A stretch of DNA of 64,000 nt. It comes from Bacteroidota bacterium. Its GTDB lineage: Bacteria > Bacteroidota > Bacteroidia > AKYH767-A > OLB10. Shown here in pieces: positions 17,520 through 61,204 of the stretch (positions are counted from its first letter, which is position 1; every line of letters starts with the position of its first letter). The position numbers were made by a program, and so were the translations under genes. The notes beneath the pieces are model-generated. The model was not told the DNA's origin and searched no databases. It saw nothing but the letters and a program-made list of their open reading frames with translations. The stretch lies in assembly GCA_046340555.1 (NCBI GenBank), contig JBKDSL010000006.1:21480-85479 (forward strand). Direction: 5' to 3'.

Positions 17520-20228
17520 ATGAAAATCAGAGTAGGAGTCGTTTTTGGAGGTACATCAATGGAGCGGGAAATCTCCTTTGCTGGAGGGCGTACGGTTTAC
17601 GATAATCTTGATAAGTCCCTTTTTGAAGCAATTCCGATTTTCATTGACTCATTCAATAATCTGATTATCCTTGATTGGGAGTATATTTACAAAGGAAGTA
17701 TTCGGGATTTTTATCCGCCTTTTAACAAGGTCGAGCATTCGTCAAATGGTTATCAGGTTTATGCCGAATCTTTAGGCGATTTGGATCCGCCATCACAATT
17801 GAGTCTTACATCAAAACTAGGTACTCGTATTGAGCCCTCGACATTGACTTCTTTGATCGATTTTGCATTCCTGTGCTTGCATGGAACAAATGGAGAAGAT
17901 GGTCGCATTCAAGGAATGTTAGAGTTTTACGGAGTGCCTTATTCTGGCACTGGAATTTTTTCCTCGGCTGTTGGGATGAATAAGCATTTGCAAAAGGACT
18001 TGATGGCTAGGTATGGTTTCAAGGTGCCTGAATTCACTTCAATCGACCGACAAACTTGGCTGTCGATTTCCGACCGTGATTCGATGATGAAGTTAATTGC
18101 AGGTAAAGTTGGAGCTCCTTTTGTTGTCAAGTCTGCTAACCAAGGTTCATCCATTGGAGTCTCTTTTGTTGATGGGTTGGACGCCGATGCCTTTGGAAAC
18201 GCTGTAGATCGATCCTTCTTCATAAGGAGAATTAAAAGATCTTTCTGGACAGAACTCAACCATCAGCAAAAGGTTGAATATGTCAGGACTCTTTCAGATA
18301 TACGCGAAGGAATCGGATTGCCGTTGATTATCTCCGGTAAGGTGATTTATCATCCTGAAGAGCTGTTATCGAATTTGAATCAACTATTCTCAGAGCAAGG
18401 CGATGAATACCTGTTGGAGGCTTTGGATAGTGAGCAGACGGTTTTGTTCGAGCGGTTCATTAAAGGCAAGGAGTTTTCATGTATTGTAATTGATGGTTTG
18501 CAAGGTGAGCCAATAGCATTGCCACCAACAGAGATCAGAAAGGGCTCGGAGGTTTATGATTACAGATCCAAATATCTACCTGGGCTTTCTCGTAAGATTA
18601 CACCAATAGATCTGCCAACGGAATCCATTGGGCAAATCAGGGAATCTTGCTGCAGGCTGTTTGAGTCATTGGGCTTTGGTGTTTATGCTCGCATAGATGG
18701 ATTTTTCTCTGCTGAAGGAGAAATATTCTTAAACGACCCAAATACTACATCCGGGATGCTTCCATCATCCTTCTTTTTCCATCAGGCGGCAGAAATCGGA
18801 TTGACTCCATCACAGTTTATCACTTTCATCATACACCGATCATTGCGGCGTAGGGAAGTTGGTTCAAATGATTTGAGGAAAAGTCTTGGTTTAATTCAAA
18901 GTCTGGAAAGGTCTTTGCATGAATGCAAAAAGTCCTCCAATTCGAAAAAACGTATTGCGGTGATTTTGGGTGGCTACTCTTCTGAAAGGCACATCTCTGT
19001 TGAAAGCGGGCGGAACATATTCGAGAAACTATCTTCATCTGAAAAATACACGCCGATTCCTTTGTTTCTTTCAGGCGATAGTGCATCTCATAAGCTTCAT
19101 GTTATTCCAATTAACATTTTGCTCAAAGACAATGCAGACGATATAAGGGAGAAGGTTTTGCATTTTGACAGGCATCCTGTGTTGCAGGATATCATAGATG
19201 AGTGTAATGAGATCACTGAATTGTTTTCTGACGGCAACGCGTTGAAGCCTCCTTTTGAGATTGCCTATGCAGAGCTTCCTAGCATGGTTGATGGTGTTTT
19301 CATCGCATTGCATGGTAGACCTGGTGAGGATGGTGAAGTTCAATCCCATCTTGATCGCGTTTGTCTACCTTATAACGGGTCTGGACCTGCTTCATCAAAA
19401 ATCACCATTGACAAATTTGAAACCAATGAGATTTTGATGTCTAATGGGGTTCATGCTGCCAAGCATATGGTTCTTCTTGGCAACGATTGGCGCAAAGACC
19501 CTTCTCGTTTCGAGGATATCGTTTTGGAGTCATTCAATTATCCGATAATCGCTAAACCTGTTGATGATGGTTGTAGCTCTGCTGTCAAGATCATCCGCAA
19601 TAGCGCCCAATTGCACGCGTTTTGCGAGTTGATTTTCAGGGAAGTTGATGAACTGCTGATTCCGGCATCAGAAATTCTGAAAATCAAGCCTAAAGAGGAG
19701 TTCCCAAGAAAAGATCGCTTCCTTGTTGAAGAATTGATTTCAAAATCTGAAGCAGATAGGTTTTTGGAGATTACGGGAGGACTGATGACCTTCTATGCTG
19801 CCAATGGAGAACTTCGATACGAGGTGTTCGAGGCTTCCGAGGCATTGTCTGAAGGAGATGTGTTGTCTTTGGAGGAAAAGTTTCTTGCGGGTCAAGGTCA
19901 AAATATCACTCCTGCACGGTACAGTTCAGATCCGATTGAAAACAAAAGAATTTCAGCTGAAGTAAAAAAAGTTCTTGAACATACTGCAAAAGTGTTGAAT
20001 GTTGAAGGGTATGCTCGAATAGACGCTTTTGTCAGGATATTTCGAGATGGGAAAGTGGAGGTTTTGGTCATCGAGGTAAATTCATTACCAGGAATGACGC
20101 CAGCCACGTGTATATTCCATCAGGCGGCAATCAATGATTATAAACCATTCGAATTTATCGACAAACTTATTGATTTCGGCATACAACGCAATCAGCGACT
20201 CCCCAATCAAACGGGTTCCAGGAAATGA
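17520..20228 (+). CDS. ddl: Tandem-duplicated D-alanine--D-alanine ligase-like protein (two complete Ddl/ATP-grasp modules in one 902-aa ORF)
   Basis: Module 1: KIRVGVVFGGTSMEREIS, FVVKSANQGSSIGVSF, ARIDGFF...IFLNDPNTTSGM. Module 2 from about aa 480: KKRIAVILGGYSSERHISVESG, IIAKPVDDGCSSAVKI, ARIDAFV...VIEVNSLPGMT. One uninterrupted reading frame. Confidence 0.8.
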   Translation: MKIRVGVVFGGTSMEREISFAGGRTVYDNLDKSLFEAIPIFIDSFNNLIILDWEYIYKGSIRDFYPPFNKVEHSSNGYQVYAESLGDLDPPSQLSLTSKLGTRIEPSTLTSLIDFAFLCLHGTNGEDGRIQGMLEFYGVPYSGTGIFSSAVGMNKHLQKDLMARYGFKVPEFTSIDRQTWLSISDRDSMMKLIAGKVGAPFVVKSANQGSSIGVSFVDGLDADAFGNAVDRSFFIRRIKRSFWTELNHQQKVEYVRTLSDIREGIGLPLIISGKVIYHPEELLSNLNQLFSEQGDEYLLEALDSEQTVLFERFIKGKEFSCIVIDGLQGEPIALPPTEIRKGSEVYDYRSKYLPGLSRKITPIDLPTESIGQIRESCCRLFESLGFGVYARIDGFFSAEGEIFLNDPNTTSGMLPSSFFFHQAAEIGLTPSQFITFIIHRSLRRREVGSNDLRKSLGLIQSLERSLHECKKSSNSKKRIAVILGGYSSERHISVESGRNIFEKLSSSEKYTPIPLFLSGDSASHKLHVIPINILLKDNADDIREKVLHFDRHPVLQDIIDECNEITELFSDGNALKPPFEIAYAELPSMVDGVFIALHGRPGEDGEVQSHLDRVCLPYNGSGPASSKITIDKFETNEILMSNGVHAAKHMVLLGNDWRKDPSRFEDIVLESFNYPIIAKPVDDGCSSAVKIIRNSAQLHAFCELIFREVDELLIPASEILKIKPKEEFPRKDRFLVEELISKSEADRFLEITGGLMTFYAANGELRYEVFEASEALSEGDVLSLEEKFLAGQGQNITPARYSSDPIENKRISAEVKKVLEHTAKVLNVEGYARIDAFVRIFRDGKVEVLVIEVNSLPGMTPATCIFHQAAINDYKPFEFIDKLIDFGIQRNQRLPNQTGSRK

Positions 20229-21049: not shown

Positions 21050-22967
21050 ATCGCTTTTATCGTTTTTTGTTACATTGGCTTTTATCCTGCCTCACACCGC
21101 TTTTGCTCAACAGGGTATTGCCAAGAATGAGCGTATCGTCCCACTCAAAGGGAATGGCGTATTACAACGATTGACCTATGATGCCAGCGTTTTGCGAACA
21201 TCCACCTCAGTCTTGGATACATTGGAGCTGCCATTCTTTGATGATTTTTCAAGGGAATCAGCTTGGCCTAATTCAACAATGTGGAGTGACAGCAGTGTGT
21301 ATGTCAATTATGGATTCGGGATAAACCCACCCACAGTTGGATGTGCTACCTTCGATGGCTTGGATAAGTTTGGAAATGCATACAATAATGTGAATGCGGG
21401 TGCGGCTGGATTGTGTGACGTGTTTACATCCAAGCCGTTGGATTTGTTTGATGACGAGAATGGGGTTCCCTATCTTTCCAGCGATAGTCTGTTTTTTGTG
21501 TTTTATTATCAACGTAAGGGTAGGGGTGACAACCCCGAGGCTACAGACTCTTTGTCTCTTCAGTTTTTTAATGTTGCAAACCAAACTTGGCAATCTGTTT
21601 GGTCCGCTAATGGCACTTCAGCCGGTGATACTGTTTTCACAAAAGTTAGGATATCCATAAACAATCCAGTATTTCGTCAAACAGGTTTTAAGTTCCGATT
21701 CAGGAATTTCGGGTCACAAAATGGAATGCTCGATATTTGGAATGTCGACTATGTATATCTGAATAAGTTTCTACCTCCAGACTATGATTTGATACGGGAT
21801 TACGCTTTCGTTAATCAGGGTTTTTCTTTGATCAATGGTTATTCTGCCGTGCCATGGGTTCATTATAATGGTCTTTCATCTAGCCAAAAAATAAATTTGA
21901 TCGACAATTCAGCCCAGTTATTGGTTCGAAATAATAATGATGGAAGTCCCTTTCCTTTAAGTGTATCAGGTAAGATCGTGAGCCGAACTGGAAATCAAAC
22001 ACAGCTTTTTGGAGGTGGAGGAGCCAACAGTATCATTATTCCTTCAAATACCAATACGGTACCCCCTTCCAGTTACACTCCATCAGTTTTTTTTGATGAT
22101 TTAAGTGCTGTTGATCAAACTTATTTTGATGCGGTTTATTCGCTTGGTCAAACATCAGGAGGTATTCCTGACGATTTTACTATCAATGACACACTCGTTC
22201 ATAGGCAACATTTTTACGATTACTATGCCCACGATGATGGTTCAGCCGAACTTGCTTACGGTATCAATGGAATAAATGCCAAACTTGCTTATCGCTTTGA
22301 TTTGCTTCAAGGCGACACATTACGTGGGATCAATATGTTTTTTGCCCAATCCGGCACAAGCGTTGCTTCTCAACAATTTCGCTTAGCCATATGGTCTGGC
22401 AACGCTTCAGGACCCCAGGGAAACCCTGTTTATGAGAAATTCAATCAAACACCAATGTACGTCGATAGTTTGAATAAGTTCAAAACCTATATAACCGATC
22501 CGGTTTATTTGACTGCCGGCACTTGGTATTTTGGCTTTATTCAAAACAACTCGGTTTTATTAAATATTGGCTTGGATATTAATACACTAGCCGATCCTTC
22601 CAAAAAATACTTCAACACATCAGGGAATTGGGTGCAGTCGCAATTGCCAGGTATGTGGATGATTCGTCCAGTTTTCAGTGGCCTAGAGCTTTACACGTCC
22701 AATACTTCGGTGGTGGAGCAGATAACTCCATTGAATATATATCCAAATCCTGCTGATGATTATTTTCTTGTTCAATCAACTCTATCAACTTGCTGTAGTT
22801 CTATGTTGGAAATCATGGATATTTCAGGACGCTTGGTTTACAAAACTGATAATATTGTTAGTCCTGTAATTGTTTCGGATCTGGCCAATGGCACTTACAT
22901 GGTTCGTGTTTCCGATTTTGGGAATGGTACGATTCGATTAGCAAGGCTTGTAGTGCAACATCCTTGA
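21024..22967 (+). CDS. Hypothetical secreted protein with a T9SS (Por) C-terminal sorting domain
   Basis: Signal peptide (KLNKSLLSFFVTLAFILPHTAFAQQ). C-terminal roughly 80 aa: LNIYPNPADDYF...DISGRLVY...LANGTYMVRV, typical of the TIGR04183-type C-terminal domain. Start at ATG 21024 or 21030. Confidence 0.65.
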   Translation: MPMRKKLNKSLLSFFVTLAFILPHTAFAQQGIAKNERIVPLKGNGVLQRLTYDASVLRTSTSVLDTLELPFFDDFSRESAWPNSTMWSDSSVYVNYGFGINPPTVGCATFDGLDKFGNAYNNVNAGAAGLCDVFTSKPLDLFDDENGVPYLSSDSLFFVFYYQRKGRGDNPEATDSLSLQFFNVANQTWQSVWSANGTSAGDTVFTKVRISINNPVFRQTGFKFRFRNFGSQNGMLDIWNVDYVYLNKFLPPDYDLIRDYAFVNQGFSLINGYSAVPWVHYNGLSSSQKINLIDNSAQLLVRNNNDGSPFPLSVSGKIVSRTGNQTQLFGGGGANSIIIPSNTNTVPPSSYTPSVFFDDLSAVDQTYFDAVYSLGQTSGGIPDDFTINDTLVHRQHFYDYYAHDDGSAELAYGINGINAKLAYRFDLLQGDTLRGINMFFAQSGTSVASQQFRLAIWSGNASGPQGNPVYEKFNQTPMYVDSLNKFKTYITDPVYLTAGTWYFGFIQNNSVLLNIGLDINTLADPSKKYFNTSGNWVQSQLPGMWMIRPVFSGLELYTSNTSVVEQITPLNIYPNPADDYFLVQSTLSTCCSSMLEIMDISGRLVYKTDNIVSPVIVSDLANGTYMVRVSDFGNGTIRLARLVVQHP

Positions 22968-22973
22968 TTTGTT

Positions 22974-24029
22974 TTGATGGATTCTGATTTCGACAAGGAA
23001 CAAAACGAGCAAGATGAGCTTTATGAGCATCATCGAATATTGGTCGACAAGGGTCAATCGTTATTAAGGATAGACAAGTTTCTGATGATGCGTTTGGAGA
23101 ACGTTTCCAGAAACAGAATACAAAACGCATCTGAAGCAGGAAGCATTTTGGTAAATGCAAAACCGGTTAAGTCAAGTTATAGGGTTAAACCTGGAGACTT
23201 GATTACCATCGTTCTTGCCCATCCGCCTCGTTTGGTAGAGGTAATTGCACAAGATATCCCAATCGACGTGGTTTACGAGGATGAGGATCTCGTTATCGTG
23301 AACAAGCCTGCGGGAATGGTAGTTCATCCAGGTTACGGAAACTACACAGGCACTTTGGTGAATGCTTTGGCTTACAAGTTCCATCCAGATAAGTTAGGTC
23401 AGTCAATTGAATCTGAAACGGAACGTCCGGGATTGGTACACCGCATAGATAAAAACACTTCCGGATTGGTAGTGGTTTCACGCAATGAGAGGGCCATGAC
23501 GCATTTGGCGAAGCAATTTTTTGACCGAACCATTAAGCGGCGTTATATGGCTTTGGCTTGGGGGGATTTTTCTGAAGATAATGGAACGGTTGTTGGACAT
23601 ATTGGCAGAAACCAAACTGACCGGAAATCCATGGAGGTATATCCTGAGGGCGACCATGGTAAGCACGCTGTTACACATTTTTCGGTCTTGGAAAGGTTCG
23701 GTTATGTGACTCTGATCGAATGTCGTTTAGAAACAGGTCGAACACACCAAATCAGGGTGCATATGAAGCATATCGGTCACCCACTTTTCAATGATGAAAC
23801 GTACGGAGGTAAAAGGATTTTGAAAGGCACCACTTTTTCCAAATACCAGTCTTTTGTCGAGAATTGTTTTTCCTTGATTCCCGGTCAAGCTCTGCACGCC
23901 CGTTCATTAGGTTTTATCCACCCATCTACAGGCAAAGAGTTGTATTTTGAAAAAGACCCTCCGGCGGGGTTAAATGCTATTCTGGATAAGTGGCGTGCCT
24001 ATACCTCTTCGAGAGGTACAGAAGGTTGA
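22974..24029 (+). CDS. rluD: 23S rRNA pseudouridine synthase, RluA family (RluD-like) with N-terminal S4 domain
   Basis: S4 region (LLRIDKFLMMRLENVSRNRIQ), catalytic HRIDKNTSGLVVVS motif, and a TGRTHQIRVH C-terminal motif. Confidence 0.85.
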   Translation: MMDSDFDKEQNEQDELYEHHRILVDKGQSLLRIDKFLMMRLENVSRNRIQNASEAGSILVNAKPVKSSYRVKPGDLITIVLAHPPRLVEVIAQDIPIDVVYEDEDLVIVNKPAGMVVHPGYGNYTGTLVNALAYKFHPDKLGQSIESETERPGLVHRIDKNTSGLVVVSRNERAMTHLAKQFFDRTIKRRYMALAWGDFSEDNGTVVGHIGRNQTDRKSMEVYPEGDHGKHAVTHFSVLERFGYVTLIECRLETGRTHQIRVHMKHIGHPLFNDETYGGKRILKGTTFSKYQSFVENCFSLIPGQALHARSLGFIHPSTGKELYFEKDPPAGLNAILDKWRAYTSSRGTEG

Positions 24030-26754: not shown

Positions 26755-27450
26755 ATGAAATATCGAATATTGTTGGCGGAGGATGAGCCTTCTTTGAATG
26801 AAACAATTCGCTTGAACCTTGAATTGGAAGGTTATAAAGTCAGTGCCGTATCTGATGGTAAATCCGCACTTAAAACTTTTAAATCCGAGCGCTTCAATCT
26901 GGTTATTCTAGACGTAATGATGCCCGAAATGGATGGATTCACCGTTTGTGAATCCATACGGCTAGAGAATAACTCTGTTCCAATTCTGTTTTTAACAGCT
27001 AAGAACACTGGCTCTGATCGCGTAATGGGCTTAAAGCTTGGCGCAGATGATTACCTGAGCAAACCTTTCAATCTAGAGGAATTGCTATTGCGCGTTCAAA
27101 ATCTCCTAAAAAGGTCAACCAATGCTGTTGTTTCTCTTCCCACTAAAATCACCATTGGAAACAATTCTGTTGACTTCATCTCTCAGGAGATAACATCCAA
27201 AGACGGAAAGAAGACGCCACTCACAAAAAAGGAATTCATGCTTCTAAAGTTGTTGGTGGAACGCAGGAACGAGGTGGTTTCAAGAGAGCATATTTTGGAA
27301 ACGGTTTGGGGTTATGATGTCTATCCTTCAACTCGGACCATAGACAATTTCATTGTGTCGTTTAGAAAGTATTTTGAAGTTGACCCCGCCAACCCGGAAT
27401 ATTTTATTTCTGTAAGAGGCGTGGGTTACAAGTTTGTAGACAATGACTGA
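26755..27450 (+). CDS. Response regulator transcription factor, OmpR/PhoB family (receiver plus winged-helix domains)
   Basis: ILLAEDEP...D(52)VMMPEMDGF...K receiver signature, and C-terminal winged-helix domain (LTKKEFMLLKLLVER...VWGYD...TRTIDNFI..LRKK). No histidine kinase within several kb. Confidence 0.85.
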   Translation: MKYRILLAEDEPSLNETIRLNLELEGYKVSAVSDGKSALKTFKSERFNLVILDVMMPEMDGFTVCESIRLENNSVPILFLTAKNTGSDRVMGLKLGADDYLSKPFNLEELLLRVQNLLKRSTNAVVSLPTKITIGNNSVDFISQEITSKDGKKTPLTKKEFMLLKLLVERRNEVVSREHILETVWGYDVYPSTRTIDNFIVSFRKYFEVDPANPEYFISVRGVGYKFVDND

Positions 27451-27473: not shown

Positions 27474-27848
27474 ATGAATCGTTTAGCTGTTTTTTTAGCA
27501 CGTTTGGTGACAATGACCTTGGCGGTCATCATCACTGATTGGATGCTTTCAGGTATAAGTGTGAGTGGTGTGCCAGCTGCAATAATAATTTCCTTGGTCT
27601 TATCGATTTTAAACCTGATAGTTAAGCCACTTTTGATTTTCTTGACACTTCCAATCACGGTTTTCACATTTGGCATTTTCCTTTTTTTTATAAATGCCTT
27701 GATTGTTCTGATTGCGGCTTGGATGGTGCCCGGATTCCAAGTTGATAGCTTCTGGTGGGCTTTGGCTTTTAGTATTATACTCTCACTAACATCCTCCGTC
27801 TTGGAAACTCTTGGCTCAAAAGGATCTACAGCAAGAAAGCACTACTGA
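27474..27848 (+). CDS. DUF360 / phage-holin family IV-like small membrane protein (YvlD-like, 4 TM helices)
   Basis: 124 aa, four hydrophobic helices, GISVSG...LLIFLTLPITVFTFGIF pattern typical of the family. Lies 24 nt downstream of the response regulator. Confidence 0.65.
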   Translation: MNRLAVFLARLVTMTLAVIITDWMLSGISVSGVPAAIIISLVLSILNLIVKPLLIFLTLPITVFTFGIFLFFINALIVLIAAWMVPGFQVDSFWWALAFSIILSLTSSVLETLGSKGSTARKHY

Positions 27849-27850
27849 TT

Positions 27851-29503
27851 TTACCGTTTACAAAGTTCTGTGTAAGGGCAATACTGACATCTTGACAAAT
27901 CGTGCGTTTGCAAAAAGGGGATGTCAGGATTATAAATTTGGTTAAGTAATTCAACTAGTCGGCTCTTAAATTCCTTCATTTTTTCAGAGTCAATTCCATG
28001 TTTTGGGAAGGATACCCCATCTTTCAACTGCCTGACTGCATAAAACCCGGCTTTTACATTTCTTTCAGGATGAATGCTTTCATAAAGCAATTTATAAAGA
28101 TGTAGTTGGAAAAGTGTTTTCTTTTTAGGATTCTTGAAAAGTTCGATAATGCCGGCTGATTCGAGTTCCACATTGCCCGTCTTATAATCGATAATACGAT
28201 AGCCATCATTCACCAAATCGACGCGATCGAAAATTCCTGTCAAATTGATTTCTTCCTGCCCGATTTCAATAGATGTATTGAATCTTCCTTCGGTTTTTTC
28301 AATGGTGAAAGGCGTTGATTTTTGATCTGCCTTTAAAATCTTTACCACCATGGTTTTTATCACTTCTCCCGTCAGTATATCGGTTCCTTGAAGTTGATTG
28401 TATTTTGTTGAAAACTCATCATCAACCACGTCTTCTACCAACCGATTGCTTTTTAACAACATCTCATTCACGTCGTCATTCGCAACGAATTTTACTTGGA
28501 ATGGAGCATAAAGCAATTCCATGACCTTATGCAGGATATTTCCAAATCCTGCAGCATCAATTTTTTCTGAATCTTCTTGTTCTTCACGAAGCCCCGCAAC
28601 ATGTTTAAAATAGAATTGTAAGGAGCAATTTATATAAGTAGAAATTGCCGTGCTAGACAATGCACCTCGTTTTTCCGTTTCTGCCCCTTTAATAAAGTAC
28701 TGTAGGGTCTCCATTACTGAAGCGTCCTTCGTTATGGATATGGGTTCATATGACGGTGAACCCAAAGAAGCTGCAACCGATCGTTGATTTATTTTTATGT
28801 TAGGAGATGACTTTGGACCGACTTCGCGAATTAATTGTTGGATATATCTTGAAGGCTCGCCACCGCCAGTTGCCCCGGCTTCCGAATTGTATGTTAGGTA
28901 TATCCGTTTGGCTCTATGCAGTAATCTATAGAAATGATACGCGTAGGATGATTCACGCTCCAAATAAGTTGATAAACCGAAAGCCTTCCGTAGAGCGAAT
29001 GGGATAAACGAGTGGTGCTGGCCATCTGCAGGCAATACTCCCTCGTTTACATTTAGTAAAATGATGTTTTCAAAATCCAACCCCCGGGTTTCTAAAAAAC
29101 CCATTACTTGTAGTCCTTGAACGGGCTCGCCAGAAAACGGTATTCTTAATGCATTAACCAAGTCTCTGATGATTGTCCAAGCTGTTTCTGTGCGAATTTC
29201 GGTTAAATGGTTTTTTAAAAGATTCTCCGCTTTTTGAATTTCTGCTGCCATGAAACGCAATATGTCATTTTCAAAGCCAGGCCTATTTGTGCCGTTTTCG
29301 ACAATCAGCAATAACAAGTTTGATACATTTTGAAAAGTACTTGAAGAGTCTTCTGCACCTTTAAATACCTTTACCGCATCTTCAAATCCGAATAAATCTG
29401 AAATTTGATTACTGTTCAACCTCCATTCATGTATTTTCGGATCGGGTCTTTGGATTGAAAATGATGATGCAATGAGTGGGTGAGCTATGGTCTGTTTTAC
29501 CAT
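27851..29503 (-). CDS. PD-(D/E)XK nuclease family protein (AddB-like), C-terminal fragment with RecB-type nuclease domain and Cys cluster
   Basis: IIDYKTG nuclease motif and terminal CQYCPYTELC. Lies in the same frame as the upstream 29525..30637 ORF, separated from it by a single TGA. Confidence 0.7.
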   Translation of the reverse strand: MVKQTIAHPLIASSFSIQRPDPKIHEWRLNSNQISDLFGFEDAVKVFKGAEDSSSTFQNVSNLLLLIVENGTNRPGFENDILRFMAAEIQKAENLLKNHLTEIRTETAWTIIRDLVNALRIPFSGEPVQGLQVMGFLETRGLDFENIILLNVNEGVLPADGQHHSFIPFALRKAFGLSTYLERESSYAYHFYRLLHRAKRIYLTYNSEAGATGGGEPSRYIQQLIREVGPKSSPNIKINQRSVAASLGSPSYEPISITKDASVMETLQYFIKGAETEKRGALSSTAISTYINCSLQFYFKHVAGLREEQEDSEKIDAAGFGNILHKVMELLYAPFQVKFVANDDVNEMLLKSNRLVEDVVDDEFSTKYNQLQGTDILTGEVIKTMVVKILKADQKSTPFTIEKTEGRFNTSIEIGQEEINLTGIFDRVDLVNDGYRIIDYKTGNVELESAGIIELFKNPKKKTLFQLHLYKLLYESIHPERNVKAGFYAVRQLKDGVSFPKHGIDSEKMKEFKSRLVELLNQIYNPDIPFLQTHDLSRCQYCPYTELCKR

Positions 29504-29524
29504 TCTGAGGTCGAATAAACATTC

Positions 29525-30637
29525 TCAATTTGCGCTTTTAACACCTGCTTCTGCTAGCCTCTTTAGTGTTACTATAAAACTGGCGAATTGCGATTGCTTC
29601 AATGGAAATCCCATCGTGACATTGAGGGAGTTTATTTCCTCAGGTATTGCGAAAAGCACAGGTAGCAAGGTCTTTTCATCCGGCAGAATGACGGCAGTCC
29701 GTTGAATGGATTCAGGAGATTCCTTGCAAATGTCTTTCAGTAATTGACCTGTTAGTTTTGCTTGACCAGCCAACAATGGTACGGATATGATATCGATTAC
29801 TTTTGGTTTTGTTGATATTCGATCAGTTGGTTTTGTTGGATGTGTCTTGAGGATTTCCGATTCACGGAAGTAGGCGCCAGCTTCATGCAATGGGTCTTTC
29901 ACATAAAGGTCATCCGTATCCCATTTTATTTCAGTTTTGGTCAGTTTGCCTAACTCTGAAATCATCCTTTCTTCAATTAATGAAAACCCATGAAAACCCG
30001 CGAATACTATCTTTTCGTGATTAGGCTTGTAATTCCCCTCCTTCAGATCTTTGAGGAACAGTCGGTAGCTTCTGCCCTCGTAAGATAGGTTTCTCTTGGT
30101 TAGCTCCTGTTGGAATCCCTCGTAAATAGATCTTAGGTTGTTCCAGTTTTCGGCAAATTCCTTTTGTAGCTTGGTGAGACTGCCCACGTCCATGGTTTTG
30201 ATGAAACCAGTAAGGAATTTCAATGATTCTGCATCAGGAAGAAATTTAGCATCAATCAACTTAAGTTCAGCGATGTTCCTAAACATAAATACGGGGTCTT
30301 CCACTTGTTTGTCGGCTTCATCAAAATCACCAAGCAACATTCTTCCCCAAGGGTAAAATTTTCCAAAGTCATGCTGCGGCCAATGGATTTTGTACACATC
30401 GTAAAGCGTGGTTAACAATTCCATTTCTTCGCTTACGGGGTAGCCTGAACTGGTTGAAACAAAATCGGCAATCGACATTACCTTCGGCGCCCATACAGGT
30501 TTTCCAATATGATGGGCAAAACGGTTTCTGAAAATAAGACATGCCCTTCTTGTTGGGAAGACCACACTCACCTTACTTGGGTCCGACAATCCCTGGGCAA
30601 TTAATTCTTTTGCTATTTCATCTATGAAAGTATCCAT
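29525..30637 (-). CDS. PD-(D/E)XK nuclease family protein (AddB-like), N-terminal fragment with degenerate helicase-like domain
   Basis: VVFPTRRACLIF N-terminal motif of the Bacteroidota AddB-like family. Ends at the in-frame TGA at 29525-29527. Confidence 0.7.
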   Translation of the reverse strand: MDTFIDEIAKELIAQGLSDPSKVSVVFPTRRACLIFRNRFAHHIGKPVWAPKVMSIADFVSTSSGYPVSEEMELLTTLYDVYKIHWPQHDFGKFYPWGRMLLGDFDEADKQVEDPVFMFRNIAELKLIDAKFLPDAESLKFLTGFIKTMDVGSLTKLQKEFAENWNNLRSIYEGFQQELTKRNLSYEGRSYRLFLKDLKEGNYKPNHEKIVFAGFHGFSLIEERMISELGKLTKTEIKWDTDDLYVKDPLHEAGAYFRESEILKTHPTKPTDRISTKPKVIDIISVPLLAGQAKLTGQLLKDICKESPESIQRTAVILPDEKTLLPVLFAIPEEINSLNVTMGFPLKQSQFASFIVTLKRLAEAGVKSAN

Positions 30638-31326: not shown

Positions 31327-33540
31327 ATGAGAAAATCATTACTTCTATTGGTTTTTGCGCTGATTAACATTGGACACATCCATGCTGAAACGTGGAAACC
31401 AATAGATATAAGCGCCGTTAGACTTAATGGGAAGCGTTTGATTAAACCTGTCCAATTTAGAGCCTACCAAATAGACCCAAACAAATTTAAGTTGCTTTGG
31501 GGCCAAGCTCCGATATTGGATGGCGCTAATTCTCGCTCCCATTCTATGGTAATCAGCATCCCTTCACCTGATGGAGTCATGATGGAGTTTGCTGTTTTCC
31601 AAAATGAGGTTCTACCAGTTCAGTTGAAACAGAAATATCCAAGCTTATCCACATACTCTGGTCAAGGTATCACAGACCCCAACTCTTTCGCTGTATTTGA
31701 TTTTACCGAGCAGGGGTTTCATGCCATGGTCCTTTCTCCCAATGGAACTTATTTTATCGATCCCGTTACGTTGTCTGACCCTGATTACTATCTGGCTTAT
31801 TACAAGAAGGACTTTATAACCGATAAAAGATTTGAATGTCTTACCGAAACATTGCGTCCCGTAACCGACGCACACCAGCCGTGTTCCCCTGGACAAACAT
31901 TGAATCGATCAGTAGGAACGCAACTAAAAACTTATCGTTTGGCAATGGCTGCCACGGGAGAATATTCTGCCTTTCATGGTGGTACTGTTGCAGGAGCTCT
32001 TTCTGCCATTGTAACATCCGTTAATCGAGTTTCCGGTATCTATGAAAGGGACTTGGCTATCCGTTTCAGCCTTATCCCCAATACTGATACATTGATTTAT
32101 TTGAATCCCAATAATGACCCATACACCAACAGCATTGGAGGTACTATGCTTGGTCAAAATCAGACTACAGTTAACAATATCATCGGTGGGTTCAATTACG
32201 ATATCGGACACGTATTCAGTACGGGTGGAGGAGGTATAGCCGGACTCGGAGTAGTTTGCAATTTCTCCAACAAGGCTCGTGGTGTAACAGGCTCACCTTC
32301 TCCAGTGGGAGACCCCTTCGATGTTGATTATGTTGCCCATGAAATCGGTCATCAATTCGGAGGAAATCATACTTTTAATTGTGAAGTTGGTTCTTGTTCG
32401 GGTAATCGAGCATTCAATGCAGCATATGAGCCGGGAAGCGGAAGTACTATTATGGCTTACGCTGGAATTTGTGGTAACAACAATTTGCAGACCAATAGCG
32501 ATGACTATTTCCATGCCAAAAGCTTTGACGAAATCATCATTTACACCACCACAGGCTTCGGTTCCAATTGCCCTCAAGTCACTGCAACTGGCAATACGCC
32601 ACCAGTAATAAATCCCATTCAAACTCGCATTATTCCTTATTTGACTCCTTTCAGGATGACAGCTGATGCCTATGACCCTGATGGCGACCCATTAACTTAT
32701 TGTTGGGAGCAGTATGATTTGGGTCCAGCTGGTACCTGGAGCGCACCCATAGGGAATGCACCAATTTTCCGTTCATTTGATCCCACCTCCTCCCCAACAA
32801 GGTTGTTCCCTCGATTGTTGAACATCTTGAATAACAGCCAAACAATAGGAGAGGTCAAGCCTGCCTACGCACGAACGCTGAACTTCAGGTTGACTGTACG
32901 CGATAATCGTTTGAATGGCGGTGGAGTCACTAACAATGATACTACCTTTCAGGTTCAGGTGATTAATACGGGCCAGGCTTTCTCAATTACCTCTCAAAAT
33001 GTAACTGGGGTGGTTTGGGCAGCCGGTTCTACCGAGACTATCACATGGGATGTAGGTGGAAGCGATTTAGCTCCAATTAGCACGCCTTTGGTTAATATTC
33101 TGTTATCAACGGATGGCGGGCAAACATTCCCGATTGTATTGGCTTCCCAGGTTCCTAATAATGGATCATTTCAAGTTCAAGCGCCTTTTGTAAACACTTC
33201 TACCGCACGCGTGATGGTTGAAGGCGATGGTAATATATTCTTTGATATTAACGACCGCAATTTCACTATAGGCATTACTTCCGTATACGAGATGCAGGCT
33301 GCTTTTCCAGTTTCTGTATCTCCCAACCCTGCAATTGGTTCGTTTGAAATTCAGCTCGCTGAATCACGGTTCGAACATGTTTTGCAGTTGTTAGACCTTA
33401 AAGGAAAATCCGTTTTGGAACTTCCACTTGTGGGTTCATCCAACTATGTAGATGTATCCAGGCTTTCGAGGGGCCTATACTTTTACAGGGTTTTGCGTAG
33501 CGATGGTGCTTTAGTAAACGGCAAACTGGTGGTCCAATAA
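31327..33540 (+). CDS. Secreted metzincin zinc metalloprotease (reprolysin-like) with T9SS C-terminal sorting domain
   Basis: Signal peptide, HEIGHQFGGNH (HExxHxxGxxH), and a C-terminal VSPNPAIGSF...LSRGLYFYRV...KLVV T9SS domain. Confidence 0.75.
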   Translation: MRKSLLLLVFALINIGHIHAETWKPIDISAVRLNGKRLIKPVQFRAYQIDPNKFKLLWGQAPILDGANSRSHSMVISIPSPDGVMMEFAVFQNEVLPVQLKQKYPSLSTYSGQGITDPNSFAVFDFTEQGFHAMVLSPNGTYFIDPVTLSDPDYYLAYYKKDFITDKRFECLTETLRPVTDAHQPCSPGQTLNRSVGTQLKTYRLAMAATGEYSAFHGGTVAGALSAIVTSVNRVSGIYERDLAIRFSLIPNTDTLIYLNPNNDPYTNSIGGTMLGQNQTTVNNIIGGFNYDIGHVFSTGGGGIAGLGVVCNFSNKARGVTGSPSPVGDPFDVDYVAHEIGHQFGGNHTFNCEVGSCSGNRAFNAAYEPGSGSTIMAYAGICGNNNLQTNSDDYFHAKSFDEIIIYTTTGFGSNCPQVTATGNTPPVINPIQTRIIPYLTPFRMTADAYDPDGDPLTYCWEQYDLGPAGTWSAPIGNAPIFRSFDPTSSPTRLFPRLLNILNNSQTIGEVKPAYARTLNFRLTVRDNRLNGGGVTNNDTTFQVQVINTGQAFSITSQNVTGVVWAAGSTETITWDVGGSDLAPISTPLVNILLSTDGGQTFPIVLASQVPNNGSFQVQAPFVNTSTARVMVEGDGNIFFDINDRNFTIGITSVYEMQAAFPVSVSPNPAIGSFEIQLAESRFEHVLQLLDLKGKSVLELPLVGSSNYVDVSRLSRGLYFYRVLRSDGALVNGKLVVQ

Positions 33541-55357: not shown

Positions 55358-58300
55358 ATGTTGTCATTGAGTACTAAAACTAATCACGTAATGAACAGGC
55401 TTCCATTCAATTGGATACTGGGGTTGATGCTAATAAGCATCGGGTCGGTATATGGTCAGGTCAATTTTTCGGCCTCCCAACAAATTGGGTGTATACCCTT
55501 CAACGTGCAATTTGAAAACCTAACTCCTGGCGCAACCAACTGTACCTGGCGATTTACCGAGACATCAACCGGAATAACCTCAACAATAGATTCAACCTTT
55601 AATCCATCTAAGAGCTTTATCGCACCAGGTCATTATGATGTCAAGCTAATTGTCAATTATTCAAACGGAACTATTGATTCCTTGACAAGGAATACGTTTA
55701 TAACCGCCAAGAGTGCTCCACAGCCTTCTTTCTCAGCACCGGTTTTATCTGCATGTTTTCAAAACAATCAGATATCATTCATTAATTCAACATCTGCCAC
55801 ATATGACTCCTTATTGTGGGATTTCGGAGATGGTACTACAAGCAATGTTTCTAACCCTGTGCATGGATATACAGCTTCTGGCTATTTCGATGTAACATTG
55901 ATTGTTTACGCGAATGGTTGCAGCAGTGCACTCACCAGAAACTCATATATTAATATATTAAATAATCCGCCAACAGCATTTTTTGCCGATACCCTGGTTA
56001 CATGTAACGCATCACAGCCGATTTCTTTTACTTCCCAAACAGTTGGAACTTCTAACTATATATGGAATTTTGGTGATGGAACTAGCAGTACTCAAGCCAA
56101 TCCTCAGCATACATATGCTGGTCCTGGTGTTTACGATGTTACTTTGATAACCATAAACTCACTAGGATGTAGGGATACTGCGTTCATGCCTGCTTACATA
56201 AATGTTTTAAATAATCCTGTACCGGTGATTTCAGTATCTGGTGGATTAAACAGGTGCGTACCTGTATACGCAACTTTTTCAACTACCACTAGCAACATCC
56301 AGTCATGGACATGGAATGTTGGTAGTAATACGTTCTCAACGCCCTCCTTTCAGCAGAACTATTTTGCTCCAGGAACTTATCCAGTCACACTTACTGCCAA
56401 TTATACCAATGGGTGTACAAACAGCAAAACAGTTGTATTAAACGCGCGTCCATTGGATATAGCATATTTTACCGCCTCCACGTATAATGCCTGTGCACCC
56501 GTTACGATCGCATTGAGCCATCAAACAACTTCATCCAACCTAACTTACAGTTGGCAGTTGGGAAATGGAACCACATCAACTACGGGCCCCAATGTAAATG
56601 TTGCCTATAATTCGCCTGGCACTTATCTTCCATCCTTAACTGTTACTAATTCTTATGGATGTAGCAACACCCAATATGCGACTAATCCAATAACGGTAAC
56701 TGCTGTGGATGCGCAATTCACAGCTGATGACATAAACGGCTGCCCTCCCCACGCTGTAAACTTCAGTCACCCTGGAGGAGCTGGCTATTCTTATCTGTGG
56801 AATTTCGGTGATGGAAGGTCATCTACCCAACAGAACCCTTCCCATACTTATGTAAATCCGGGTTCTTATCCAGTTAGTTTAACCGTTACAAATCAAAGCG
56901 GATGCATGCATACATATAGCATGCCATCTCCTGTATTGGTAAACAACGGGGTTAATAATTTTGTACCAGGCGATACCATTTATGGGTGTGCCCCGTATAC
57001 AGCAAACCTTTATGATAACTCATCTAGTTCTTCAAGCTGGCTTTGGAGTTTTGGCGATGGCGCGACTTCTACAAGTGCCAATGCCATTCACACCTATAAC
57101 CAAGCAGGTGTTTATAATGTGACACTACAAACCCAGTCAAACGGAAGCTCGTGTTCGCAGTTTGTTAATCCATTCATTACTTATGTGTTGACCGAAGGGG
57201 AAGCCAATTTTTCTGTTACCAATACATTGTGTCCTCCTTATACATCTACATTCATTGATTCATCCATTAATGCAGTATCATGGTTTTGGGATTTTGGTGA
57301 TGGTACCACATCTACCCTTCAAAACCCATCTCATGTTTATACCAATGGCGGTTCTTACAATGTGTCGCTTACTATTACCACATCAGCAGGATGTACCTAT
57401 ACAATGGTTCAGAATTTTGCTGCCAATTTCAATCCGTTGAATGCAAGTCCTACAGGATTTGTGGTTACACTGATTCCTCCAACAGTCCAATTCAATGCCA
57501 ATAGCACAGGTGCTACGGGATGGTTGTGGAACTTTGGCGATGGAACAACTTCTTCGCTTCAGAATCCGCTACACATATATCCCACCTCCGGCGGACCGTT
57601 TCCATTAAGTTTGATCATATTCAATAATGGATGTGCAGACACCTTGTCTTTCGCACCTCCTGCTTCAAGTGGACCTCCTATCGGCTCCCCAATTGATCCA
57701 CCCGTTGGGCCACCAGGTGGAGGTCCGATAAACACTCCTGATCCGATTGCTGGATGCGCCCCATTCAATATGGGATTCAACAACCCGGTTCAAGGTGCGA
57801 TTTCCTCTGTTTGGCATTTTGGTGATGGTAACACATCATATTTGAACAGCCCTGATCATATTTATACTGCTGCAGGACTTTATACTGTAACACTCATAAC
57901 GGTGAACAGTGCTGGATCAACAGATACTCTTCAATGGTTGAATGCGGTACGTGTGAATGCGGTTTCGGCCGATTTCAATTATACTTCCTCGTCAGGCTGT
58001 ACAGGATCAACTATTACCTTGAATAACAACTCTACCACTGGTGCAACATATAGTTGGGCTTTTGGTGACGGAACACAATCAAGCCTTTTCGAGCCCACTC
58101 ATCAATATGGGTTGAGTGGCATGAATCATCTCATTACGCTCAATGTGACCGATTCAATGGGCTGCTCAGCATCCAAAAGCATCACCTATTATGCATCTGG
58201 TACCAATCCTATTTCCGCAAGCAAGAAAAAGGTCTGCAAAAACGAACCGATATCCTTTTTTAACAATAACCCGGGATATGCGACTTATTTATGGGATTTT

Positions 58301-61204
58301 GGTGATGGAAATACTTCTTCATTACCAAATCCAGTTCATTCCTATACGGCCGGAGGTGTATTCAATGTAGTACTTACAGTGGTGGATGTAGCACAATGCA
58401 CAACGGTGTTCAATATGCCCTATCCAATCGAGATCTATGCTCCAAATGCTGATTTCTCCTTCGCTTTGATTCCTGCCAGTTGCAACTCTCCATCTGTCAA
58501 TTTCACTAACCTATCGACCGGCGCCACATCTTATTTGTGGGATTTTGGCAATGGACTTATGAGTAGTGCAGTGAGCCCTTCCATCACGCTGAATACATAT
58601 GGTTCACACAATGTGACTTTGATAGCTGCTTCTGGTTCTTGTGTTGACACCATGACACTTACCGGTTATGCGGTAAGACCTAATATCATCGCCAATTTTT
58701 CTTACACGCAAGACAGGATCTGTTTCCCGATCACCATCACGGTTACCAATACGAGCATTGATGGATCAACTTATTTGTGGGATTTTGGTGATGGTACAAC
58801 TAGCACAACCACCGATTCCGTATTTACGCATGTGTTCACATCACAACCTCAAAATCCTATCACTCTATCAGCTTGGAATTCTTTGGGATGTTTGAACGTG
58901 GCGTCCAAGCCCAACATTCAATCTATGCAGGTGTCTTTCAATGTGGCTGACTCAGTCGGATGTGCGCCCTTTGCATTCCAGATAAGTGGAACATCCAATC
59001 TTAATGCTTCATGGTATTTCAACTATGGCAATGGTTTAACCTCATCCATTCCAAACACTCAGCATGCCAATGCTTCCACAATTTTCAACCATAATGGAAA
59101 TTATGTGGTGAATGCTGTTGTTACGGCTCCTACCGGTTGTATTCAGCGTTTTGATAGTTTGGTTACGGTTTCGGCTACAGGGCCCTCTGCATCCTTTAAT
59201 TTAACGGCAGACTCCTCCTGTGCTCCAACTATTGTTACGTTCCAAGACGGAAGCTATGGCGCACAATCATGGTTCTGGACCTTTGGAAACGGTAACCAAT
59301 CCGCTTTGCAAAACCCTACGCATGTGTACAATGTGCCAGGTACATACGACATCACTTTGGTAGTGACCGACTCTTCAGGTTGTACCGACACCCTTACGCA
59401 AACTGAAGCAGTACAAATAACAGGTACTTATTCACATTTCACTTCAACCGATCCGACAGGATGCGCTCCTTGGACCGTTGCATTCAGCGATTCATCTGTA
59501 AATGCCTCTACATGGCTGTGGGATTTTGGCGATGGAAATTCTTCTTCTGACCCTAATCCTGTTCACACCTATACACAAGCTGGGGTTTATGCGGTGATTT
59601 TGATTACTTACGAGAGTTCTGGATGTTCATCAGCTTACCAGCTACCAGATTCGATCCGGGTAAGTGAGATACCTGAGGCATTGTTCACAATATCAGGAAC
59701 CAGTGGTTGTGCGCCTTATCTCGTTACGTTCAGCAATCAAAGCACTGGAGCGGTTAGTTATGACTGGGATTTTGGTGACGGTTCTCATTCCAATAGTGTA
59801 AATACATCCCATTCCTATGTGTCATCTGGAACCTATTGGGTGACGTTGATAGCAAATTCCCTCAATGGATGTTCCGATACCTTCACGTATCAGATGCCTG
59901 TTGTTGTTGGTGAAATACCCCTGGGTAGCATCATTGCTTCAGCTACTTCAGGCTGTGCTCCATTGAATGTTGTTTTCACATCCAATATTTCCAACGCGGA
60001 TTCCACTGCATTATATTCATGGAATTACAATGGAAACAACTATAGTGGCTCCAGTCTAAATTTGACATTTGCGCAAAATGGAACACATCAGGTTCAATTA
60101 TCAGTTACCAATCAGTCCGGTTGTAGTGCCACATTCAGCGCTACTGCAACTACCCATGGTGCCGATACCCTTGGTCCTGTTGTAATGCGAAGTGCTAGTG
60201 TTTTGGGTCCGAATAACGTAGAAATTAAATGGGCAGACATCATTGATCCGGAATTGGCTTATTACCGAATTTACCGAATGGATAATTCCACTGGTAATTT
60301 CAATCTTATTCACACCTCATACAGCATCATTCCGGTAAACCCAGATGTGTATCAGGCTTGGGTAGATCATGCTACCACCACATCCTCGAAAACCAATACG
60401 TATTTAGTTCAGGCTGTTAATACTTGTGGCTTAGCTGCTCCGCTAAACGCCCACACACCTCATACCACAGTAAACTTGGAGGTGAATACGGCATCTAGCA
60501 CTCCGACTTTGCAATGGAATAGCTACGGTGGAGCTTCTACTTCAGGATATCTGGTTCAACGTATGGACGAGCCAAATGCACCTTGGACTAACTTGACAGT
60601 TGTTCCTGCTTCGGTCAATATGTATGTTGACAGCTCCGTTTATTGCTCTGATAGTGTTTCTTACCGCATTACCGCACTTGATTTGAACGGGCTGCCCATA
60701 TTCGATGCATTCTCCGATATTGAGAACATATTGGCTCCAGGCTCATTGTTGATTCAACGCGTGGACATGGTTCGTTCAACCGTGGAAGACGACTCTTGGG
60801 TATTAACGGAATGGTCAATGCCAACATTGGCTCCTCAATTGGTTACAGGATTCGAACTTTTCCGTTCAACCGACAACATCAATTTTACCCGAATCGCTGT
60901 TTTACCTCCTGTTCAAACCAGTTATGAGGATCGAAATGTTTCAGTTAAATCGCAGGAGTATTTTTATAGGGTCAAGGTGAGTAACACCTGTTCGTTGGAA
61001 GCATCTTCAGGATATGAAAGCTCTTCGATTTTGCTGCTGGCTAATCCAGACCAGCGATACGGTGTGAACTTACGCTGGACTCCCTATGTGAATTGGGATA
61101 CTGGTGTGGAAGAATATGTAATCGAGGAGTGGAATCAGGCTACTGGGACATGGGACTATGTCAAAAAAGTTGACGGGTCGACCACTGAAACAGGAGTGCA
61201 ATAA
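55358..61204 (+). CDS. Giant secreted PKD-domain array protein (about 19 tandem PKD domains, a Pro-rich linker, and C-terminal Fn3-like modules)
   Basis: Signal peptide; the W(D/N)FGDGTTS...NP.H.Y...G.Y.V.L...N..GC unit is repeated about 19 times. No T9SS C-terminal domain was recognised at the C-terminus. Confidence 0.8.
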   Translation: MLSLSTKTNHVMNRLPFNWILGLMLISIGSVYGQVNFSASQQIGCIPFNVQFENLTPGATNCTWRFTETSTGITSTIDSTFNPSKSFIAPGHYDVKLIVNYSNGTIDSLTRNTFITAKSAPQPSFSAPVLSACFQNNQISFINSTSATYDSLLWDFGDGTTSNVSNPVHGYTASGYFDVTLIVYANGCSSALTRNSYINILNNPPTAFFADTLVTCNASQPISFTSQTVGTSNYIWNFGDGTSSTQANPQHTYAGPGVYDVTLITINSLGCRDTAFMPAYINVLNNPVPVISVSGGLNRCVPVYATFSTTTSNIQSWTWNVGSNTFSTPSFQQNYFAPGTYPVTLTANYTNGCTNSKTVVLNARPLDIAYFTASTYNACAPVTIALSHQTTSSNLTYSWQLGNGTTSTTGPNVNVAYNSPGTYLPSLTVTNSYGCSNTQYATNPITVTAVDAQFTADDINGCPPHAVNFSHPGGAGYSYLWNFGDGRSSTQQNPSHTYVNPGSYPVSLTVTNQSGCMHTYSMPSPVLVNNGVNNFVPGDTIYGCAPYTANLYDNSSSSSSWLWSFGDGATSTSANAIHTYNQAGVYNVTLQTQSNGSSCSQFVNPFITYVLTEGEANFSVTNTLCPPYTSTFIDSSINAVSWFWDFGDGTTSTLQNPSHVYTNGGSYNVSLTITTSAGCTYTMVQNFAANFNPLNASPTGFVVTLIPPTVQFNANSTGATGWLWNFGDGTTSSLQNPLHIYPTSGGPFPLSLIIFNNGCADTLSFAPPASSGPPIGSPIDPPVGPPGGGPINTPDPIAGCAPFNMGFNNPVQGAISSVWHFGDGNTSYLNSPDHIYTAAGLYTVTLITVNSAGSTDTLQWLNAVRVNAVSADFNYTSSSGCTGSTITLNNNSTTGATYSWAFGDGTQSSLFEPTHQYGLSGMNHLITLNVTDSMGCSASKSITYYASGTNPISASKKKVCKNEPISFFNNNPGYATYLWDFGDGNTSSLPNPVHSYTAGGVFNVVLTVVDVAQCTTVFNMPYPIEIYAPNADFSFALIPASCNSPSVNFTNLSTGATSYLWDFGNGLMSSAVSPSITLNTYGSHNVTLIAASGSCVDTMTLTGYAVRPNIIANFSYTQDRICFPITITVTNTSIDGSTYLWDFGDGTTSTTTDSVFTHVFTSQPQNPITLSAWNSLGCLNVASKPNIQSMQVSFNVADSVGCAPFAFQISGTSNLNASWYFNYGNGLTSSIPNTQHANASTIFNHNGNYVVNAVVTAPTGCIQRFDSLVTVSATGPSASFNLTADSSCAPTIVTFQDGSYGAQSWFWTFGNGNQSALQNPTHVYNVPGTYDITLVVTDSSGCTDTLTQTEAVQITGTYSHFTSTDPTGCAPWTVAFSDSSVNASTWLWDFGDGNSSSDPNPVHTYTQAGVYAVILITYESSGCSSAYQLPDSIRVSEIPEALFTISGTSGCAPYLVTFSNQSTGAVSYDWDFGDGSHSNSVNTSHSYVSSGTYWVTLIANSLNGCSDTFTYQMPVVVGEIPLGSIIASATSGCAPLNVVFTSNISNADSTALYSWNYNGNNYSGSSLNLTFAQNGTHQVQLSVTNQSGCSATFSATATTHGADTLGPVVMRSASVLGPNNVEIKWADIIDPELAYYRIYRMDNSTGNFNLIHTSYSIIPVNPDVYQAWVDHATTTSSKTNTYLVQAVNTCGLAAPLNAHTPHTTVNLEVNTASSTPTLQWNSYGGASTSGYLVQRMDEPNAPWTNLTVVPASVNMYVDSSVYCSDSVSYRITALDLNGLPIFDAFSDIENILAPGSLLIQRVDMVRSTVEDDSWVLTEWSMPTLAPQLVTGFELFRSTDNINFTRIAVLPPVQTSYEDRNVSVKSQEYFYRVKVSNTCSLEASSGYESSSILLLANPDQRYGVNLRWTPYVNWDTGVEEYVIEEWNQATGTWDYVKKVDGSTTETGVQ
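55500..60150 (+). repeat. Tandem array of roughly 240-nt coding repeats (PKD domains) inside the giant ORF
   Basis: TGGGATTTTGGTGATGG-like cores recur at about 55817, 56068, 56799, 57041, 57285, 57525, 57815, 58057, 58296, 58540, 58780, 59277, 59519 and 59765. The repeats are diverged and protein-coding, not a CRISPR array. Confidence 0.7.

Follow-up and report, generated by a model that had tools for sequence, protein, structure and literature searches.

In the DNA analysed here, a 64-kb stretch referred to below as the window, two open reading frames (ORFs) follow one another in the same frame on the minus strand and are parted by a TGA codon and seven sense codons, which raises the question of whether they are two genes or the remains of one. 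An earlier note on this DNA had named three options: the stop could be a nonsense mutation of recent date, it could be a sequencing error, or the gene could truly be split. The first two both remain after the present analysis, while the third fell away since the orthologues are single ORFs.

One reading frame, two annotated proteins

The description of the locus in that note is borne out by the sequence, by its translation and by a program-made list of ORFs, in which the same two ORFs appear at 29525..30637 and 27851..29503. Read as a whole, the minus strand at 27851..30637 is one reading frame with a single internal stop, and joining both ORFs gives a 928-aa protein, that is, a gene of 928 codons plus stop that is broken at codon 371; its identity as a whole gene is supported by the translation, the alignment to a full-length orthologue (P0001), the Pfam family PF12705 and Foldseek. 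The interrupting TGA lies at 29527..29525 and is followed by GAA TGT TTA TTC GAC CTC AGA (ECLFDLR, 29524..29504), a spacer that itself holds two substitutions private to the window (29519, W373C; 29508, R377L), and then by an ATG at 29503..29501. Upstream of the TGA, the N-terminal ORF (30637..29528, minus strand) encodes 370 aa with VVFPTRRACLIF at codons 25-36 and corresponds to a degenerate SF1-helicase-like lobe without a Walker A motif. The C-terminal ORF (29503..27854, its stop codon extending to 27851) encodes 550 aa comprising the remaining helicase-like fold and the nuclease, and holds both the IIDYKTG motif (28195..28175) and the stretch CQYCPYTELC (27889..27860), so that all three motifs quoted in the note are present. 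The NCBI annotation lists the N-terminal ORF as a hypothetical protein (MFN9595219.1, ACK560_00365) and the C-terminal ORF as a PD-(D/E)XK nuclease family protein (MFN9595218.1), both encoded on a 94,739-bp contig of a MAG named 'Bacteroidota bacterium'. That TGA is a normal stop elsewhere in the window also proved correct; it is the commonest genuine stop and ends 19 of 40 Pfam-supported or long ORFs, including the one closed at 1241-1243. On its 3' side, the nuclease gene converges with a gene of the Phage_holin_4_2 family (27474-27848, plus strand), with 2 nt between the two stop codons, and this convergent arrangement (27846-27853) is kept in all conspecific contigs.

Relatives of the window carry the gene in one piece. 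The orthologue P0001, a 928-aa protein from another sample, matches at 99% identity across both ORFs with no gap, which shows that the ORF pair is no chance juxtaposition, and the 90%-identity cluster of both ORFs contains full-length 928-aa proteins from other samples. At the DNA level, the contig L001 (JGI 3300032050) shows 99.48% identity and not a single indel over 5027 nt, L015 (JGI 3300008108) is 99.2% identical, and L005 (NCBI GCA_046302435.1, 18.6 kb), L006, L007, L008 and L009 are 96-97% identical; the shorter conspecific contigs L010, L011 and L018-L022 were also compared. A contig scan of genomes returned relatives at 77-80% identity only, and looking for exact matches to proteins of the window in a contig index gave nothing useful. 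Codon 371 is covered by L001, L005, L006, L007, L008, L009 and L015, which come from independent samples at 96-99.5% nucleotide identity, and it reads GGA (Gly) in all seven, with the 928-aa frame open in each. The synteny is likewise the same in all conspecific contigs, running from a response regulator through the holin-family gene, the nuclease and a 188-aa gene to an M12B protease. Among the best 120 matches out of 586 homologues, none of the 119 longer than 850 aa is split. A conserved two-gene arrangement, which the earlier note had suggested looking for at orthologous loci, therefore finds a counterpart in none of the seven contigs and none of the 119 homologues and was rejected as an explanation; judged by these sequences, the locus is one gene, not two.

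Disrupted genes are also seen in other assemblies. In L006 (6900-6910; window 23258-23462), about 200 nt are missing from an RluD-like gene, which is called as pieces of 177 aa and 99 aa, and a further 258 nt are missing (8062; window 21847-22104) inside a T9SS-tailed 647-aa gene, so other assemblies of this population carry gene disruptions or deletions of their own. A broken gene is found in another assembly of the same species as well: in L018 (153-847; NCBI GCA_031545195.1) the response-regulator gene is called as a 145-aa Response_reg piece and a 70-aa Trans_reg_C piece. Within the same 90% cluster, the protein P0127 (NCBI, 4047-bp contig) begins with about 45 unrelated residues that replace everything upstream of about residue 516, as would be expected if, in another MAG, the nuclease gene had been rearranged internally or chimerically assembled.

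An AddB-like protein without a helicase neighbour

The note had expected the joined product to be a PD-(D/E)XK nuclease of roughly 930 aa that is common in Bacteroidota, in agreement with what a search with the joined sequence returned, namely 586 homologues that are nearly all single Bacteroidota proteins of 912-1007 aa, named 'PD-(D/E)XK nuclease family protein' or 'RecB family exonuclease'. Its description of the gene as AddB-like is upheld by the PF12705 match in the C-terminal ORF (E=6.5e-38), by the pattern of cysteines and by the best fold match, the AddB of Bacillus subtilis. The residues D804, D817 and K819, which do not vary among 81 homologues, are also found in the window, the latter two within the intact IIDYKTG nuclease motif, whose Y818 is also invariant in the family. 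Of the cysteines, C671 (28625-28627) is invariant, while C917, C920 and C926 (the C-x2-C-x5-C of CQYCPYTELC) are at least 90% conserved in the family; the upstream cysteine and the C-terminal triplet together make up the predicted four-cysteine Fe-S ligand pattern of AddB type. In the window's gene, catalytic and Fe-S residues are all intact.

For the N-terminal part, the evidence comes mainly from the predicted structure. The Pfam family ADDB_N reaches 21.6 bits on the N-terminal ORF, under its cut-off of 26.6. When the intact orthologue P0001 was modelled with AlphaFold (mean pLDDT 87.8) and the model compared by Foldseek, the best match was chain B of B. subtilis AddB (4cej_B), aligned over the whole length with E=1.7e-26 and a TM score, normalised to the query, of 0.57-0.59; RecC (8b1t_C, E=5e-19) and AdnA (7sjr_A, E=3e-18) follow. 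According to this model an SF1-helicase-like fold is present in the N-terminal part. Firmicutes-type AddB has a Walker A ATP-binding motif in its N-terminus. In the family studied here, by contrast, the pattern [AG]x4GK[ST] is absent from the first 80 residues of 120 out of 120 members and from P0001 altogether, where the corresponding stretch is VVFPTRRACLIF.

Among known systems, the AddB of B. subtilis AddAB (PDB 3U4Q, 4CEH, 4CEJ chain B) is thus the closest in whole-length predicted fold, and it has in common with the window's protein a C-terminal RecB-type PD-(D/E)XK domain (PF12705), an upstream cysteine with C-x2-C-x5-C and a degenerate helicase-like N-terminal part. The two differ in length (928 aa here, about 1160 aa in AddB), the identity is only about 12%, and the scores with the NCBIfam AddB/RexB models are 40-61 bits against cut-offs of 486-904; the curated AddB models TIGR02773, TIGR02774 and TIGR02786 give 40.6, 46.4 and 61.3 bits where 903.7, 718.35 and 486.5 are required, so that the protein passes none of them. 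The NCBIfam matches, to TIGR03623, addB_alphas, rexB and addB_Gpos, are all below threshold. The best of these profiles, the 'probable DNA repair protein' TIGR03623 (98 bits against 299.6) and the alphaproteobacterial AddB TIGR02786 (61 against 486.5), match residues 477-892, from the middle of the helicase-like part through the nuclease, and leave the N-terminal 470 residues unmatched. RecC (of RecBCD) and AdnA (of AdnAB), the next-best folds, are alike in architecture, with an inactivated helicase and a nuclease-like domain, although RecC is not known to have an active nuclease or Fe-S cysteines, and AdnA retains helicase motifs. A sequence search of the PDB and a literature search on AddB in Bacteroidota returned nothing useful.

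AddB usually has its partner AddA, a UvrD-like helicase-nuclease, encoded in the same operon. The absence of an adjacent UvrD/AddA-like helicase gene, which the note had pointed out, extends to the whole 64-kb window. No addA/UvrD-type partner was found within 10 kb of P0060 either, a distant orthologue at 34% identity, which makes this further difference from AddB the norm of the family rather than a peculiarity of the locus. Taken together, the 928-aa protein is AddB-like, with a degenerate SF1-helicase-like N-terminal part and a RecB-type nuclease with a four-cysteine motif. Because of the PF12705 match, the fold match and the conserved Asp, Lys and Cys residues, it probably works like an AddB-type nuclease subunit, even though it passes none of the curated AddB models and has no addA neighbour.

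Repeated domains were also noted in two other ORFs of the window. A 902-aa ORF (17520-20228, plus strand) contains, according to Pfam, two N-terminal and four C-terminal stretches of D-Ala-D-Ala ligase, as if two Ddl modules had been fused in tandem, and is followed by a PASTA-domain gene. The other, of 1948 aa (55358-61204, plus strand), carries about 15 PKD-domain repeats and a stretch resembling the N-terminus of chitinase A.

Private G>T changes in the nuclease gene

Within the nuclease gene, the window differs from L001 at 14 positions. The stop itself arose from the glycine codon GGA by a G>T transversion, and this substitution does not stand alone. Together with four other G>T changes private to the window it forms a strand-coordinated cluster on the coding strand (C>A on the plus strand), at 29527 (G371*), 29519 (W373C), 29508 (R377L), 28494 (G715V) and 28489 (V717F). 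Three of them fall within 20 nt and the other two within 6 nt about 1 kb downstream (28489..28494), where 11 conspecific contigs carry the ancestral bases, so that all five span 1,039 nt. The only other changes in the gene that are private to the window are two synonymous ones, at 29555 and 29204. When 10 changes are placed randomly in the gene, a triple within 20 nt together with a separate pair within 6 nt is obtained with p~1e-3.

Several further changes that at first appeared private are real shared haplotypes, as seen from alleles held in common with L010, L011 and L015. The allele at 28315 is common to these three contigs, those at 28196, 28056 and 28027 (including A861V and M871L, which lead to residues common in the wider family) are shared with L015, and a cluster in the response-regulator gene (27087-27136) is shared with L011. 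An initial count of 8 non-synonymous against 3 synonymous private changes had pointed to a long-standing pseudogene under relaxed selection, an explanation that was dropped once L010, L011 and L015 showed A775T, A861V, M871L and the response-regulator cluster to be such haplotypes. The five G>T changes, in contrast, are found in no other sequence, including L015, which shares the haplotype of the window in the 3' half of the gene.

Over the 9.2 kb for which a relative more than 99% identical is available, the window has 27 private changes. While the five G>T changes are all non-synonymous, the other 22 comprise 19 synonymous and three conservative changes (Y6F, E98D and Q72H), and the difference between the two sets (non-synonymous to synonymous 5:0 against 3:19) is significant (Fisher's exact p=7e-4). 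The spectrum is skewed as well, since G:C>T:A makes up 11% of the differences between the window and L005 but seven of the nine private changes in 27488-29555 (p=7e-6). The five changes hence form a class apart: they are clustered, share one type and one strand, and show no filtering by selection. Apart from them no decay following inactivation is visible in the gene, where the two synonymous changes are all that is otherwise private; as no other unfiltered change has accumulated, there is no visible period of pseudogene drift. The lesion is therefore either evolutionarily very young or not real, because the five G>T changes are private and non-synonymous while the other private changes have been filtered by selection. 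A generally error-prone assembly was discarded as an explanation, as neither indels relative to L001 in 5 kb nor other broken genes in the 64 kb were found, and the window-lineage changes in 12 neighbouring genes are 103 synonymous against 21 non-synonymous.

About 4 kb away, in the gene of the M12B/T9SS protease (31327-33540, plus strand), the window carries two C>A changes at 33443 and 33446 (T706N and S707Y) relative to L005 and an outgroup, of the same type and on the same strand as the changes in the nuclease gene. The doublet was considered as a third private cluster and rejected as such, since it is a real haplotype that is also present in the assemblies P0130 and P0131, though not in P0141; being shared, it indicates that this lineage does undergo clustered G:C>T:A events in vivo. 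Another cluster, of eight private changes within 90 nt of which seven are synonymous, lies at 23258-23348 in the RluD-like gene (22974-24029, plus strand), where two comparator contigs are available, and has the look of a short tract recombined in from a lineage outside the sampled ones.

Two templated routes to the changes were also tried and rejected. Around the stop an imperfect inverted repeat is present (29514-29529 and 29621-29636), in which the derived T residues at 29527 and 29519 raise the complementarity from 11/16 to 13/16. A quasi-palindrome templated mutation is nevertheless weakly supported (permutation p~0.03), given that the central mismatch is unconverted and that the change at 29508 and the second cluster are left unexplained. 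Nor does the window contain another copy of the derived 29-mer (up to 3 mismatches) that could have served as an ectopic template or as a donor in gene conversion.

A young lesion or an error in the sequence

The reading that we favour, at about an even balance of probability, is that the strain sampled carries a genuine loss-of-function lesion of very recent origin in evolutionary terms. The five changes, among them the one turning Gly371 from GGA into TGA, would then go back to one or two events that each hit several sites, of the G:C>T:A type associated with oxidised guanine. Translation would then end after residue 370 and leave a 370-aa fragment lacking the nuclease, while the 550-aa fragment could be made at best by re-initiation at the ATG at 29503. 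The AlphaFold model places the break in a loop that links helix 350-364 to strand 373-376, a position that we take, by analogy to the domain boundaries of UvrD, to be the 2A/2B junction; as this is inside the second RecA-like lobe, an active protein appears unlikely. We infer the in vivo origin of the lesion, the chemistry of the damage and the loss of function alike. A real lesion is supported by the surrounding sequence, in which the other 22 private changes resemble selection-filtered variation, the neighbouring genes show the same preponderance of synonymous changes and no indel or other broken gene occurs, and the length of the contig, 94.7 kb, argues against a very poorly covered assembly. 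Against it stand the five G>T changes themselves, which occur in no other sequence, are of one type and on one strand and are all damaging; moreover, selection in a large free-living population would be expected to act against the loss of a resection nuclease.

The same features make it a substantial possibility, if one somewhat short of even, that the organism keeps an intact GGA gene and that the TGA is an artefact of sequencing, library preparation or assembly, or else a variant of a single molecule, outside the consensus, that the assembler took up, with the five calls arising from oxidised guanines or low-quality stretches in one or few template molecules at locally thin coverage. G>T / C>A is the classic signature of guanine oxidation in vitro (8-oxoG) during library preparation (Costello et al., 2013; PMC3616734). 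Such an origin would fit five changes that are clustered, non-synonymous throughout and seen in none of 7 to 11 conspecific contigs, not even in L015, whose haplotype is the nearest, as well as a spectrum that departs from natural variation and a gene that shows no other decay, its catalytic and Fe-S residues being all intact. However, the remaining assembly looks error-free, the source contig is long, the clusters are spread over 1,039 nt, beyond the reach of one short read pair, and the C>A doublet nearby in the same lineage is real. Nor does the typical substitution bias of Illumina sequencing, with errors after GG-ending motifs and toward G, explain G>T particularly well (PMC4787001). The locus resembles ordinary nonsense pseudogenes and 8-oxoG library artefacts in having a single premature stop private to one assembly and made by a G>T among further G>T changes on the same strand, but library artefacts in the literature are usually at low allele fraction, whereas here the change is in the deposited consensus. 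Doubtful, though still conceivable, is a narrower form of the in vivo origin in which the five G>T changes over 1,039 nt would be the footprint of a single event, a kataegis-like strand-coordinated mutation shower during replication or repair synthesis across single-stranded DNA with several oxidised guanines.

Readings in which the interrupted gene still functions fare worse. A functional nuclease of two polypeptides, in which 370 aa and 550 aa are made separately, the second by re-initiation at the ATG at 29503, and reassemble, could draw on this in-frame ATG lying 21 nt past the stop, on the two CDS of the source annotation and on the intact catalytic and Fe-S residues of the C-terminal ORF. 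It is nonetheless very improbable, since the arrangement recurs in neither the seven conspecific contigs nor the 119 homologues, the predicted fold is broken within a RecA-like lobe and the radical changes W373C, R377L and G715V accompany the stop. The continuation of the frame past the TGA is the sole point in favour of recoding, whether as selenocysteine, as programmed read-through or through a code in which TGA is a sense codon, and such recoding is scarcely credible. Selenocysteine and read-through were rejected because the orthologues have Gly (GGA) at codon 371, neither Cys nor Sec, because the window contains no tRNA, and because the SECIS-like element that the earlier note had proposed to look for is not found, the 100 nt downstream folding like shuffled sequence (z=-0.08). 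An alternative code was rejected on account of the 19 of 40 genes in the window that end in TGA, genes with full-length Pfam matches.

All in all, the interruption is an ordinary event of a known kind, a young nonsense mutation or a sequence error, in which the strand-coordinated clustering of five G>T changes alone is mildly unusual. Its biological import is small and its main use lies in annotation: MFN9595219.1 and MFN9595218.1 are fragments of one AddB-like gene, not two proteins, and their entries call for a flag that marks the gene as disrupted or the sequence as possibly in error. The comparison of private changes with conspecific contigs, which sorted selection-filtered variants (19 synonymous, 3 non-synonymous) from unfiltered ones (0 and 5), also offers a means of spotting doubtful bases in MAGs when no reads are at hand. 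Only if reads bear out all five sites would the locus document a modestly interesting natural clustered mutation event of oxidative type, and if this was indeed a mutation shower, its target would have been a Bacteroidota strain living wild in freshwater, which would thereby have lost its own AddB-like nuclease for end resection.
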